Origin: a virus
Lineage: Duplodnaviria; Caudoviricetes
Reading direction: 5' to 3' (one strand)
Length of the DNA stretch: 57,924 nucleotides
Virus record (IMG/VR): IMGVR_UViG_3300027863_000043
Span: 1-57,924 of that record
Notes under the pieces: model-generated
Told to the model about the DNA's origin: nothing
The model's input: the letters and a program-made list of their open reading frames with translations, nothing else
Databases searched by the model: none
Shown: piece after piece, positions 41,190 through 44,105 of the stretch
How the letters are laid out: the number at the start of each line of letters is the position of its first letter
How positions within the stretch are numbered: position 1 is the stretch's first letter
Made by a program: the position numbers and the translations under genes

Positions 41190-44105
41190 TCAGTCCTTTC
41201 TGTAGAAGCTCGTTACGAACCCATCCGCACGTAGCGAGAGGCCTGGTGCCCAAGGGATGGGCGAACTCATCGTTGCGATCACACTCTCAAGGTCTGCGGT
41301 CTCGGTGGGGATCTCAACCACCGCCTCATCATGGACATGGAACACGGTTCCCCATCCGAGTGCGTCGAGTCGTACCAGGGACACTGCGAGACAGTCTCGA
41401 GCGAATGCCTGTGTTACATTTTCTACCAATTTACCCCCATACGTGGGGACGACTTCCCACTTGCGCGTTTGCTGATTGACACCGTGATAGTGCAGCGCTT
41501 CGCGGTTGCGGTCGTTCGTCTGCAGGAACGGTCGCGGATAGAACAGCTTTCGGCTGCTCGGCAACGTGATGGTCAAGAAGTCTTGGCCCGTCGCGTGAGG
41601 GCTTTCCCGTGCTAGGAGCAGCCCTCGGATTCCAACCGGCTGACCCGTGCGCATCACGTCGAGGGCTGCGTTCTCAAGCGAGTACCACAAGTCCACGATC
41701 CGCTTGTTGGCCGAGCGCCAACGCTGGATGATTTCAAGAAGTTGATCATCGGACAGCCCCATTTGGTCTGCGCCCATGGCCTTGAGCGCTCCAACGCCCC
41801 CTTGGTATCCGCAGTTGTGAACGAGTTTTCCAGACACGGTGAATCGGTGGCGTGGACCGGCGTTCAGAATGTCATAGACGCGAGTTTGGCGGCGATTCCG
41901 CGCCAGTTCTTCCGTTTTTCGTACACGGCTGATCGTGCTTCCTCGATGATTTGTTCGCGGGTCATCCCACTGGAAAGTTTCCGGACAACGGTTGACCTCG
42001 CGTATGGCCACTCGTGTGGATTCCATTCTTTCAGAACCGTGATTCTTCGATTGCCGCATCGGCTTACTCGTGTAGCCCATCGAAGGTTTTCCGCTTCGTA
42101 GTGGCCCTCGTTGTTGATACGATCGATTTCGAGATATCGTCCGGGCAGCCCGAGATTCTGGATGATCCATATCCCTGCTTCGGTTACGGATGCGAATTTG
42201 AACTTGATACCTCTCGCCCCGAAATTGTGATAGCCCGGATTGCTCGGGTTCTCGCACCGTTGCTTTGCGGCCGTTAACCTCCGGTCCAACCAAAGGGGAA
42301 CCTGGCGAGGCTGAGAGCACGGCTGACACCCTGCTGATTTTCCAGAGACGAGATTGTAATAGTCCGTCCACTGAACCCTTCCACACGAAGCACACCGAGT
42401 CAGCACCATCGGGTCTCGCCAGTTGCGTTTCCAGCGCTTCTCCGAACTGATGATCTCTACCCACCCGTACCGGATGCCGACCATCTCCGGATTGAATGAG
42501 ACGTGCTCCGCTGGCGGCGGCGTCGCCAAACCGTAACGGCCGCGATTCCCCTTCGACCCAAACGAGATGATCGGGAGTTGCTGAGAGGCCGTCATAGCTT
42601 AATACCTCCTTCACACCCTTGCAGATAACTCCGTCATGCGTAACCCAACCCAAGCCGTCCCACAGTCGATGAGCCCGGGTGACCTGCTCGATGGGTATAA
42701 GCCCTCGGTCGGTGAGGACTGCCTCGCCTTCCGCTATGCAGGCGAGTTCGGCCACCTTACCTTTCTGTCTCAGCTCGTACTCCGGGTTGCCTTTCACAAT
42801 CCGCTCCAGCGGCACGCCGAACATCTGGCTCGCCGAGGCTTCGTAAATCTTGCCGTGGGTTGCGAACACGTCTAGGCGCCACTGTTCCCCTGCCAACCAT
42901 GCGATGACACGCGCCTCGATGGCGCTGAAGTCGGCCACAACGAACACGTGCCCAGGCACCGGTACGAACGCGGTGCGTATGAGTTGCGAGAGGGTATCCG
43001 GAACGTTACCGTACACAACGCGCAGAACGTCGAGCTTGCGCTCCTTCACACAGTCTCGCGCGTGCGACAGTGCCTCCAGATGGTTGCGGGGCAGGTTTTG
43101 CACCTGCACGAGACGTCCCGCCCATCGTCCGGTTCGATTGGCTCCATAGAACTGGAGCAACCCTCGCACGCGGCCGTCCTCGCACACGGCGGAACTCATC
43201 GCGGTGTACTTCTTGACGGATGTCTTGCTGAGCTCTTGCCGGATTTCGAGCATTCGTTTGGCCGCGCCGTCGTCCAGACCATCAAGCATCCCGGTCACGG
43301 TGTCCTTGCGCAGATTGGTGACTTCCTCGCCCAGTTCATCCCCCAACCACTTGGACAGCTGGGACACGCTTTTGGGGTTCTCCAGCCCGGAGATCCGGAC
43401 CGCTTCCCCCATCAGGTCCATGGTGACGATCTCGCTTATGGTGATTGCGCCTTTGACCAGGCTCAGGTCTACCGCGACCCCGCGCGCGTTGATGCGCTGG
43501 TCCAGCTCCCACAGCCGTTGCTCCTGCTCGGGCACGGGGAATGCGGCCAAACGTCTCTCTATCTCCATTTCAGTAACGACATCCTGGACGCAGTAGTTCT
43601 TGAAGAGTTGCCATTTCTCCGGTTCGTGATGGGGTAGCGTTCGGGTACGGTTGCCGTTGCTCTTAGACGGTTTGCAGGGAACGCAGAACGTCCGGATGAG
43701 CGCGGAGCCAATGCTCATCTTCCGCTTGTCCTCGGGCAGCCCGAGGGCGGCGGCGGTCGCGCCTAGCCCAGCGGTGTACCCGCAGTACAGCCCATGCAGC
43801 ATTGTGCAACGCCACTGAGCGAGCCAATCCTCGGTATGATCTACCCAGAAAAACTTGCTCAGGCAGTACCATTCAAAGGGCGCGTTGTAGGCGTGCTTGG
43901 TAACGCAGGGGTCGAACAGGGCCGTAACCACTTCGTCCGGCAGGCGCTCGCCCTGTGCCAGGTCCACGATTTGCACCGGCGCACCGTCGAGCGAGTAGGC
44001 CAGGAGCAGGATCTCAAAGTCCGGTGACTGGACGTACTTGTGCATGCCAGCCTTTTTGATGTCCACGCTGGAAAATGTTTCGATGTCCAAGTTCAAATGT
44101 TGCAC
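41190..44105 (-). CDS. Family-A DNA polymerase containing an intein
   Basis: Exonuclease 'LDIETFS','AYNAPFE','YCVQDV'; 'GANRTGRWAGR.VQ.QNLP','DFSAIEAR','RQKGKVAELA|CGY','ENVTQA.ARD','HVHDE'. Confidence 0.95.
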   Translation of the reverse strand: MQHLNLDIETFSSVDIKKAGMHKYVQSPDFEILLLAYSLDGAPVQIVDLAQGERLPDEVVTALFDPCVTKHAYNAPFEWYCLSKFFWVDHTEDWLAQWRCTMLHGLYCGYTAGLGATAAALGLPEDKRKMSIGSALIRTFCVPCKPSKSNGNRTRTLPHHEPEKWQLFKNYCVQDVVTEMEIERRLAAFPVPEQEQRLWELDQRINARGVAVDLSLVKGAITISEIVTMDLMGEAVRISGLENPKSVSQLSKWLGDELGEEVTNLRKDTVTGMLDGLDDGAAKRMLEIRQELSKTSVKKYTAMSSAVCEDGRVRGLLQFYGANRTGRWAGRLVQVQNLPRNHLEALSHARDCVKERKLDVLRVVYGNVPDTLSQLIRTAFVPVPGHVFVVADFSAIEARVIAWLAGEQWRLDVFATHGKIYEASASQMFGVPLERIVKGNPEYELRQKGKVAELACIAEGEAVLTDRGLIPIEQVTRAHRLWDGLGWVTHDGVICKGVKEVLSYDGLSATPDHLVWVEGESRPLRFGDAAASGARLIQSGDGRHPVRVGRDHQFGEALETQLARPDGADSVCFVWKGSVDGLLQSRLWKISRVSAVLSASPGSPLVGPEVNGRKATVREPEQSGLSQFRGERYQVQIRIRNRSRDMDHPESRAARTISRNRSYQQRGPLRSGKPSMGYTSKPMRQSKNHGSERMESTRVAIREVNRCPETFQWDDPRTNHRGSTISRVRKTEELARNRRQTRVYDILNAGPRHRFTVSGKLVHNCGYQGGVGALKAMGADQMGLSDDQLLEIIQRWRSANKRIVDLWYSLENAALDVMRTGQPVGIRGLLLARESPHATGQDFLTITLPSSRKLFYPRPFLQTNDRNREALHYHGVNQQTRKWEVVPTYGGKLVENVTQAFARDCLAVSLVRLDALGWGTVFHVHDEAVVEIPTETADLESVIATMSSPIPWAPGLSLRADGFVTSFYRKD
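41814..42740 (-). mobile_element. Intein (309 aa) in polymerase motif B
   Basis: Block A CIAEGEAVLT, block B ATPDH, block F VYDI, block G VHN followed by Cys; removal restores KVAELA-CGYQGG. Confidence 0.93.
41864..42595 (-). CDS. HNH homing endonuclease nested in the +1 frame inside the intein
   Basis: AAGGAGGT 8 nt before ATG; 'CASCG','GCQPC','KQRCENP..PGYHNFGARGI','IDRINNEGHYEAENLRWAT...NRR'. Confidence 0.88.
   Translation of the reverse strand: MTASQQLPIISFGSKGNRGRYGLATPPPAEHVSFNPEMVGIRYGWVEIISSEKRWKRNWRDPMVLTRCASCGRVQWTDYYNLVSGKSAGCQPCSQPRQVPLWLDRRLTAAKQRCENPSNPGYHNFGARGIKFKFASVTEAGIWIIQNLGLPGRYLEIDRINNEGHYEAENLRWATRVSRCGNRRITVLKEWNPHEWPYARSTVVRKLSSGMTREQIIEEARSAVYEKRKNWRGIAAKLASMTF

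Follow-up and report, generated by a model that had tools for sequence, protein, structure and literature searches.

Results

An intein interrupts a temperate phage's DNA polymerase gene

The stretch of DNA analysed here, referred to as the window, is the entire virus record IMGVR_UViG_3300027863_000043 of IMG/VR (57,924 bases; Duplodnaviria, Caudoviricetes). Its subject is a PolA-family DNA polymerase gene that carries an intein, within which a second gene, related to homing endonucleases, is nested in a different reading frame of the same strand. All window features described below lie on the minus strand. The polymerase precursor gene (41190-44105; 971 amino acids, aa) stands out in the list of open reading frames (ORFs) and matches Pfam DNA_pol_A (E 4.6e-17) as well as NCBIfam DNA polymerase I models. 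It is part of a temperate-phage replication module, and its neighbours encode an exonuclease, a Gp2.5-like single-strand-binding protein (SSB), a primase-helicase and an integrase. A search of phage records for DNA nearly identical to the polymerase gene returned no match.

Reading the boundaries divides the precursor into an N-extein of 455 aa (42741-44105), which ends in ...KGKVAELA, a class-1 intein of 309 aa (41814-42740), which runs from Cys1 (42740-42738) to His308-Asn309, and a C-extein of 207 aa (41190-41813), which opens with the +1 Cys (CGYQGG...). The site is uninterrupted in relatives: KGKVAELA/LGYQGG (the slash marks the insertion point) is contiguous in 80/80 of the nearest N-extein relatives, which share 62-85% identity over the last 200 residues. 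The residue at +1 is Cys in all 82 intein-bearing alleles and Leu in all 80 intein-less alleles nearest to the window. Cys1 is invariant in 30/30 N-terminal domains and at least 90% conserved in a full-length alignment of 34 rows, while T55 and H58 of the block B motif T-x-x-H (T-P-D-H in the window, codons 55-58, 42567-42578, where codons of the nested ORF overlap it) are invariant in both sets. H308 and N309, at the C-terminal end ...LVHN/CGY, are likewise invariant in the full-length alignment.

An AlphaFold2 (AF2) model of the intein, built from the 34-row alignment, has a predicted local distance difference test score (pLDDT) above 90 for residues 1-87 and of 84-92 for residues 280-309, and these ends are modelled in the HINT fold. 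The intervening linker of 192 residues (88-279) scores below 50 and has no secondary structure. In a Foldseek search of the Protein Data Bank (PDB), the top match was the NpuDnaE intein (4kl5; E 4.2e-3, probability 1.00, TM by target 0.51), followed among the top matches by the Mtu RecA, Ssp DnaB, DnaX and gp41-1 inteins, each with probability 1.00. No match reached E <= 1e-3, the best E-values being 4e-3 or worse, for which the length of the disordered linker is probably responsible. The sequence itself supports the HINT assignment weakly: a profile of the 30 N-domains matches NEQ068, the N-half of the split Nanoarchaeum polymerase intein, at E 0.0025; Pfam Hint_2 touches 7 of the 30 members (best E 7.8e-4); and searches of PDB by sequence with the whole intein or with the last 38 residues gave nothing relevant. 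NCBIfam matches neither the intein nor the nested ORF, and the ESM Atlas does not contain the intein sequence. From the invariant residues and the modelled fold we infer that the insert is a class-1 intein able to splice.

The original prediction had described an intein with intact splicing blocks around a featureless middle, and both parts of this description were borne out. By sequence, this middle part of the intein frame matches nothing in Pfam, NCBIfam or PDB, and its composition is basic and polar (R+K 20%, S/T/N/Q 27%), with 22% hydrophobic residues as compared with 34% in the exteins.

A nested gene in the +1 frame has its own start signals

The nested ORF (41864-42595) specifies 243 aa and a stop codon and was assigned, from the ORF list, PHROG matches, alignments and models, to a family of HNH_3-like or AP2-like modular proteins related to homing endonucleases. 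Given that its first base is offset from that of the polymerase gene by 44105-42595 = 1510 nucleotides, it is read in the +1 frame. A Shine-Dalgarno (SD)-like sequence, AAGGAGGT (42604-42611), occupies intein codons K-E-V and is separated by 8 nt from the nested ATG (42595-42593), so that SD, spacer and ATG all fall within the codons for K-E-V-L-S-Y. The stop codon, TGA (41866-41864), lies within the codons for VYDILN. This arrangement was recovered exactly as first described. Across the intein, neither the polymerase frame nor the +1 ORF holds a stop, as compared with 10, 11, 15 and 11 stops in the other four frames.

The nested ATG depends on the choice of TAT for an intein Tyr codon and the SD on the choice of GAG for an intein Glu codon, and both choices are biased. 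The position of the ATG is shared by 32 of 35 distinct inteins; in the remaining three, an in-frame ATG is present upstream. TAT encodes the Tyr in 32/35, while it makes up 58% of Tyr codons in the exteins; for the Glu, GAG is used in 30/32, as compared with 42% in the exteins; and a GAGGT-type SD core is present in 29 of the 35 distinct relatives. This codon choice indicates that the start signals are under selection. No conserved RNA structure was detected around the nested start (alifold of 23 sequences, -0.97 kcal/mol; single-sequence z-score -0.19). A regulatory hairpin at this position was considered and rejected, as it amounted to a 5-bp pairing of SD and block-B codons with one compensatory change. 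A consensus scan of the polymerase gene found no sigma-70-like promoter, although such a scan is evidence neither way. The simplest reading is that the nested ORF would be produced by internal initiation on the polymerase mRNA.

When compared with its free-standing relatives, the nested ORF has about 37 additional N-terminal residues, which lie over intein block B. This extension is the one part that looks overprinted in the strict sense.

The overlap of the two frames is neither chance nor error

To calculate how often the polymerase frame would stay open by chance, the nested protein was held constant and synonymous codons were sampled from the codon usage of the exteins. For the window, the probability is 2.0e-3 for the central 185 codons and 4.4e-4 for the entire ORF. 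Relatives of lower GC content would be expected to contain 5-21 stops each, and for them the probability has a median of 2.6e-7 and falls to 4e-16 at the lowest (34 of the 35 distinct sequences were evaluated; the remaining one, which has a stop in the nested frame, was skipped). The 35 distinct inteins, each of 927 nt, have no stop in 35 x 309 codons of the polymerase frame, and this frame is stop-free in 61/61 complete inteins found in bacterial genomes. The rule behind this pattern is simple, since a stop in the polymerase frame requires a nested codon that ends in T and is followed by a codon starting with AA, AG or GA. At the 46-67 such sites per sequence, T-ending codons number zero, where 10-34% would be expected. 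The openness of a second frame can thus be expressed as a quantifiable avoidance of NNT codons before AA, AG and GA.

The same sequence was recovered in a second sequencing run (other sample, other study; X2), of which a contig spans 41719-42716 without a single difference or gap. Because this contig is identical and free of indels, compensating sequencing errors are excluded; such errors, named beforehand as the finding that would overturn the layout, were not seen. The arrangement is confirmed to be neither chance nor error.

Selection changes frame along the intein

Nei-Gojobori ratios of nonsynonymous to synonymous substitution (dN/dS), read descriptively, were obtained from 51 pairs with 80-98.5% nucleotide identity, drawn from 82 distinct inteins. 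In the N-terminal splicing domain upstream of the nested ORF (codons 1-48; 42596-42740), where the polymerase frame codes alone and the model exceeds a pLDDT of 90, dN/dS in the polymerase frame is 0.09 and diversity is highest at position 3 of that frame, as it is throughout codons 1-60 and again in codons 286-309. The following zone (codons 49-105; 42426-42595) combines the remainder of the HINT N-lobe with nested residues 1-57; here, dN/dS for codons 61-105 is 0.81 in the polymerase frame and 0.15 in the nested frame. For the centre (codons 106-285; 41886-42425), the values are 1.58 and 0.11, respectively. Throughout codons 61-285, diversity is greatest at polymerase position 1, which is nested position 3. 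The C-terminal splicing domain (codons 286-309; 41814-41885), which comprises blocks F and G and ends in ...VYDILNAGPRHRFTVSGKLVHN, returns to the pattern of the first, with dN/dS in the polymerase frame of 0.11 for codons 291-309 and a pLDDT of 84-92.

Taken together, the frame-specific ratios and the diversity assign the splicing ends to the polymerase-frame protein and the centre to the nested-frame protein. As judged from dN/dS, the codon rule and the low pLDDT of the disordered linker, the polymerase frame across the centre is simply kept open and does not encode a second selected protein. Nested-frame purifying selection, for which a dN/dS analysis of each frame had been suggested, was therefore found. 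Of the approximately 730 bp first described as dual-coding, both frames are indeed free of stops over the full length; true dual constraint, however, is confined to about codons 61-105 and 286-300, where diversity is reduced at all three positions.

The nested protein belongs to a large HNH_3-like family

The nested ORF matches two PHROG families annotated as HNH endonucleases (phrog_374, E 2.7e-15; phrog_3377, E 3.1e-14). A near-length search collected 337 related database proteins at E <= 1e-5, and a profile of the nested family matches 91,471 representative clusters at E <= 1e-3. The conserved motifs of the family are CxxC...CxxC, RCxNP...Y.NYGxRGI and E-(I/L)-D-R-I-(D/N)-N...Y...N-L-R...N, with D158, R159, Y166, N170 and N182 being invariant. 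The first motif corresponds to a zinc-ribbon-like element (42317-42394) with invariant or nearly invariant C68, C71, C90 and C93 and modelled strands at 63-68 and 74-78. The last is a beta-beta-alpha core (E-I-D-R-I-N-N...N-L-R-W...N, residues 156-182; 42050-42130), with strands at 156-159 and 171-174 and a helix at 176-181. A helical, helix-turn-helix (HTH)-like domain (residues 200-240; 41876-41998) follows, with helices at 200-208, 213-225 and 231-240.

The AF2 model of the nested protein has a mean pLDDT of 81.8, with a disordered N-terminus of about 15 residues. Its beta-hairpin and helix (156-181; pLDDT about 85) have the topology of an HNH motif, including the conserved Asn. A library of predicted viral structures yielded 79 matches at E <= 1e-3, and among the names they bear are HNH endonuclease, AP2/ERF-domain protein, HTH homing endonuclease and putative HNH homing endonuclease. 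In the ESM Atlas, the nearest named clusters bear NUMOD1, Sigma70_r4, NUMOD3 or I-HmuI_NUMOD-like domains, which serves as a lead only.

The element is widespread and patchy, and probably moves independently of its host gene

A tblastn search placed full-length relatives (53-58% identity) within coding sequences (CDS) annotated 'DNA polymerase'; these belong to Streptococcus phages Javan101, 104, 107, 113 and 255, to PhiSdyV1524 and to Gardnerella phage vB_Gva_AB1. The records of Javan113, PhiSdyV1524 and vB_Gva_AB1 have the nested ORF in the +1 frame and are annotated with 'DNA polymerase' alone, so the nested gene has been missed. When scanned, IMG/VR contributed 62 loci and species-representative genomes 67; most come from Bacillota, and the best match is a Brevibacillus sp. 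(76%). The layout is +1 in 64/65 phage or viral loci that have both an intein piece and a nested ORF, as well as in 66/66 assessable loci of bacterial genomes. Among the 65, the layout differs in Sodalis phage SO-1 alone, whose intein is another one and has its nested ORF at +2.

An extein tree was built from 130 rows, of which 51 carry the intein and 79 do not; it omits L004, L066 and loci lacking two adequate extein matches. Here, the window falls, with support of 100, inside a clade made up of 79 intein-less alleles. Its splicing parts and nested ORF are 73% and 76% identical to those of the Brevibacillus genome, while the exteins share just 56%. Across 2,628 pairs, the identities of splicing parts and nested ORF correlate with each other (Spearman 0.60) and, less closely, with that of the extein (0.30-0.33 for either).

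Distribution among close relatives is patchy. For one carrier, L012, the intein is present in 4 of the 80 nearest relatives, lacking in 75 and unclear in 1; among N-exteins that are at least 90% identical to that of L012, 2 carry the intein and 8 do not. This variation among near-identical polymerase alleles fits homing. In the same neighbourhood, 18 close intein-less alleles have Cys at +1, while 57 more distant ones have Leu. The Cys-type empty alleles (L299, L301-L316 and L335; ELA/CGYGGSVGAM) have flanks that are 90-96% identical in nucleotides to those of the carrier, and the Leu-type alleles are among L318-L377. The +1 Cys of these empty alleles may be the footprint of precise intein loss, or they may be empty sites that bear a Cys. 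Single stops in the nested frame, with the polymerase frame open, were noted in L003 (Streptococcus phage PhiSdyV1524-fexAoptrA), L055, L154, L176 and L193.

Related inteins occupy other sites, and relatives of the nested gene stand free

The closest polymerase relative of the window, L072, is its sister in the extein and is empty at the window's site. It has a homologous intein of 302 aa at a second PolA site (L072:5247-6152; ...GGKLVEN/C...FIVHN/CVQAIARD), which again holds a +1 nested ORF of the same nuclease family (L072:5446-6090; 32% identity). Here, the probability of an open host frame is 1.2e-7. The 80 nearest relatives of this second nested ORF comprise 74 free-standing and 6 nested genes, and IMG/VR contains five nested copies in addition to that of L072.

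Family genes also stand directly behind intein-less PolA genes. One of them overlaps the polymerase stop codon (L066:2731-3231), and another is found in Salmonella phage SAP012 (L149:3001-3549), where the stretch from the polymerase to the VRR-NUC gene, which contains it, is unannotated. Such positions fit the invasion of a mini-intein by a free-standing gene, and this part of the original prediction is thereby supported.

How often such an invasion took place was addressed by phylogeny. A FastTree analysis of 116 nuclease sequences places the nested genes of site B among free-standing ones and apart from the site-A clade (2 changes). An approximately unbiased (AU) test on a subset of 53 rows did not reject a single nested clade (p 0.63), and the constrained tree was the likelier one; we therefore do not claim repeated invasion. 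As an open host frame has a chance probability of about 1e-3 in the GC-rich window and of 1e-7 to 1e-16 in AT-rich sequences, an origin in a GC-rich phage and a later spread is plausible.

Several variants of the element were also encountered. Sodalis phage SO-1 (L004:1421-4609; NC_013600.1) has a third intein, located four residues upstream in the same motif (IGKA/C...HN/CELGLGYGG), with a +2 nested ORF of the same family and a probability of 3.4e-3 for an open host frame. Similar inserts occur in related Escherichia and Shigella phages. The SO-1 record labels the insert a 'type I self-splicing intron' even though the polymerase CDS is one open frame, while the annotation of one relative, Pubbukkers, is that of an intein-containing polymerase. 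Shorter inteins of about 250-262 aa (L050-L056, L060-L065 and L214), still with the +1 layout, have nested ORFs that lack either the C-terminal helical domain or the N-terminal part. Rearrangement breakpoints fall inside the element in three loci. L020 has lost the N-extein, and its nested ORF continues in frame from an N-terminus that resembles sigma-70 region 4 (L020:2455-3771; 438 aa), a fusion that is also seen as protein P0090. The polymerases of L007 and L009 end within block F (near 3734 in L009) and are followed by unrelated genes.

Discussion

The locus is best explained, and we consider this likely, as a mobile class-1 intein at PolA motif B of a temperate phage, in which the homing-endonuclease gene is a cistron of its own, placed in the +1 frame. 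Translation of the polymerase frame would yield one precursor, consisting of the N-extein, the HINT N-lobe (residues 1 to about 87), the linker, the HINT C-lobe (280-309) and the C-extein. The unstructured basic and polar linker of about 190 residues is none other than the nested gene read out of frame, and the intein is predicted to splice itself out to give ...ELA-CGYQGG.... Other ribosomes would initiate at the SD and ATG inside intein codons 44-50 and produce the protein of 243 aa, made up of a zinc ribbon, a DNA-binding module, the beta-beta-alpha core and the C-terminal helical domain. Most likely, this protein would cut or nick intein-less polymerase alleles, with repair copying in the whole intein (homing).

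A number of results weigh against this explanation, several of which concern the nuclease itself. The nested ORF of the window has no match in Pfam, HNH models included. HNH_3 is touched by 6/43 relatives, always below threshold (best E 0.0038), and other family members reach 16-18 bits at a cut-off of 24.8 bits. Searches of PDB by sequence with the ORF and with the family profile gave nothing relevant, and the nested model has no Foldseek match in PDB at E <= 1e-3 (best E 0.64). By hhalign, similarity to a set of 30 canonical NUMOD4-HNH_3 proteins stays below significance (probability 0.5, E 0.11); the best alignment, itself non-significant, falls on the beta-beta-alpha core and sets the invariant R159 opposite the invariant catalytic His, which suggests that the family, with R159 following D158, is devoid of the canonical general base. 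In light of the negative Pfam, PDB and hhalign results, we call the protein HNH_3-like and regard its activity as that of a putative nuclease. The HNH label, which builds on remote similarity, is weak by curated standards: the endonuclease assignment of the original prediction stands with respect to the PHROG HNH families, and does not with respect to Pfam HNH_3 and the catalytic His, in place of which there is an Arg. With regard to expression, no RNA run is among the listed sequencing runs that hold the window sequence. A minority of copies has a stop in the nested frame (1/35 distinct inteins, 3/67 genomes and L055); given that their polymerases are intact, the nested gene can decay while the polymerase persists, as expected late in a homing cycle. 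Finally, the pairs underlying dN/dS share ancestry, so that the ratios are descriptive rather than independent tests, and the sequences behind the codon counts are related, which means that these counts are not independent events.

The same results might be taken to mean that the nested protein is a DNA-binding relative of the HNH_3/AP2 proteins, without the His and without nuclease activity, that acts as a regulator or helper, with mobility supplied in trans or extinct. The invariant D158-R159 at the position expected for the catalytic His agrees with this idea, as does the failure to reach HNH_3 or to match any solved nuclease, and several structural neighbours are named as DNA-binding or AP2/ERF-domain proteins. 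However, beta-beta-alpha nucleases in which the general base has been replaced are known, and the beta-beta-alpha unit retains the invariant polar residues D158, Y166, N170 and N182. Strong purifying selection on the nested frame (dN/dS 0.11), the position of family members beside intein-less polymerases, which is typical of free-standing homing endonucleases, and the variable presence of the intein among near-identical alleles further speak against this idea, which we regard as unlikely. That the ORF of the window phage is an unexpressed relic, and its intein a functional mini-intein with a long linker, appears more doubtful still. Broken nested frames beside intact polymerases do exist and a promoter-like site inside the polymerase gene was not found, but the window copy is of full length and has kept the ATG, the SD and all invariant residues; moreover, the nested-frame dN/dS is 0.11 family-wide and selection on start codon and SD is visible in the choice of codons.

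We see very little room for production of the nuclease as a fusion through programmed +1 ribosomal frameshifting. Seven database proteins (P0121-P0126) pass between the polymerase and the nested frame, in either direction, yet their switch points differ and they look broken or mis-assembled, as opposed to the 337 proteins of the near-length search. In addition, the start of the nested ORF is marked by a conserved ATG and SD and not by a conserved RNA structure. Practically negligible, in our estimate, is an artefact or mis-assignment, be it compensating frameshift errors that hide an in-frame HNH intein or a group I intron with an HNH ORF. Although the GenBank record of SO-1 names its analogous insert an intron, the +1 layout recurs in about 130 independent loci, and the second sequencing run is identical without indels; as weaker evidence, none of the seven frame-switching proteins, which are all that a search for longer proteins gave, has a complete in-frame form of polymerase, intein and HNH. 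An intron would require neither an open host frame, nor conserved Cys1, TxxH and HN-Cys residues, nor a HINT fold, and a group I intron in particular was ruled out, with no Rfam match at E <= 1 in 41000-44300 and the host frame held open.

The explanation as a mobile intein with a nested, out-of-frame nuclease cistron also bears on how such elements arise. We offer, as a tentative idea that may well prove wrong, that the element is a living intermediate in the conversion of a free-standing homing-endonuclease gene into an intein domain. A His-less gene would have lodged out of frame in a mini-intein, tolerated solely through a ban on T-ending codons before AA, AG and GA, and would have grown an N-terminal extension over block B to reach the SD and ATG. 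Still homing, the element would have colonised at least two, perhaps three, PolA sites as a unit, with precise losses leaving the +1 Cys as a 'scar'.

Inteins with out-of-frame nucleases are already in print, as the original prediction had surmised, and the window element is an unannotated new case. A study by Gorbalenya from 1998 is cited for an intein with its endonuclease in a separate reading frame, and preprints of the Gogarten laboratory from 2025-2026 treat such inteins. In actinobacteriophages, inteins have been reported whose additional ORFs are LAGLIDADG or VSR-like in antisense, or endonuclease VII-like in 'frame 3'; their authors propose that free-standing endonuclease genes invaded the inteins, and report that horizontal transfer has continued (Gosselin, Arsenault & Gogarten, bioRxiv 10.1101/2025.01.02.630785). 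Like the window element, they combine an intact splicing domain and an endonuclease region without recognisable structure with an endonuclease ORF that is read in a different frame or from the opposite strand. The parts consulted, however, describe HNH inteins as in-frame, DNA polymerase III alpha as the polymerase, and secondary ORFs that typically lie outside the splicing domain, whereas the present elements have an HNH_3/AP2-like ORF on the same strand at +1, reside at PolA motif B, mostly in Bacillota prophages, and start their ORF inside the splicing domain. A cyanobacterial DnaX intein has an overlapping endonuclease frame under purifying selection (Phillips et al.), which is an antisense LAGLIDADG according to Gosselin et al. 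(10.1101/2025.01.02.630785). It shares with the window the separate overlapping frames, relaxation of the extein-frame overlap, a sporadic distribution and a proposed secondary invasion of a mini-intein, but differs, as far as described there, in its host gene, dnaX, in the organisms concerned and in being cellular rather than phage-borne.

Two further systems resemble the window in part. Free-standing homing-endonuclease genes at the position of the intein endonuclease have been described for phage DNA-synthesis enzymes, and the authors considered this arrangement a route by which endonucleases integrate into inteins (PMC2677866, 2009). In the case presented, the host gene is divided into two ORFs and requires trans-splicing, while the window has a single ORF of 971 aa; given that the polymerase frame is stop-free through the nuclease gene in every complete copy, splicing would take place in cis. 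Arsenault et al. (2025, PMC11855218) reported an HNH that lies out of frame in an intein-free methylase, and leave the route of its translation open. This ShiLan insert has in common with the window a hidden HNH-type ORF in a host frame that stays open. It is not surrounded by an intein or intron and is thought to be retained in the protein, and it starts with GTG without a detectable ribosome-binding site; the window has a complete intein with predicted removal, and a strong SD and ATG. Free-standing 'HNH endonuclease' genes of Enterococcus and Bacillus Herelleviridae phages share the common core of the window ORF (zinc ribbon, RCxNP...YGGRGI and (I/L)DRIDN..Y.P.N.RW...N), but are not nested and lack its N-terminal extension of about 37 residues. 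Full-text literature searches, which leave figures and supplements uncovered, returned no description of this PolA intein, and overlap with the family of Gosselin et al. is possible. From these published systems the window element is set apart by its nuclease family, by a +1 frame on the same strand, by its host gene and host range, and by the start of its ORF, with a strong SD, inside the splicing domain.

The element is known from about 130 loci, some in named phages of Streptococcus and Gardnerella, others in culturable Bacillota with complete genomes; carriers with complete genomes include Ruminococcus callidus ATCC 27760 and Acetobacterium carbinolicum DSM 2925. Since the family is large and easily sampled, an out-of-frame intein endonuclease becomes open to strong evolutionary statistics. 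For intein evolution, the case is directly relevant to the model of 'splicing first, endonuclease later', and for biochemistry it poses the question of whether, and how, an HNH_3-like family of very large size can cut DNA when Asp-Arg stands where the catalytic His would be. It also points to a blind spot of annotation, in that nested genes are overlooked and the insert of SO-1 is labelled an intron.

The neighbouring SSB gene

The Gp2.5-like SSB is encoded at 44177-45160 of the window, also on the minus strand, and matches PHROG 112 (E 5e-59). Its long C-terminal tail is rich in Pro, Gln and Tyr and contains repeated 'QAPYGQP'-like units. Several spurious ORFs, found on both strands, run across this repeat.

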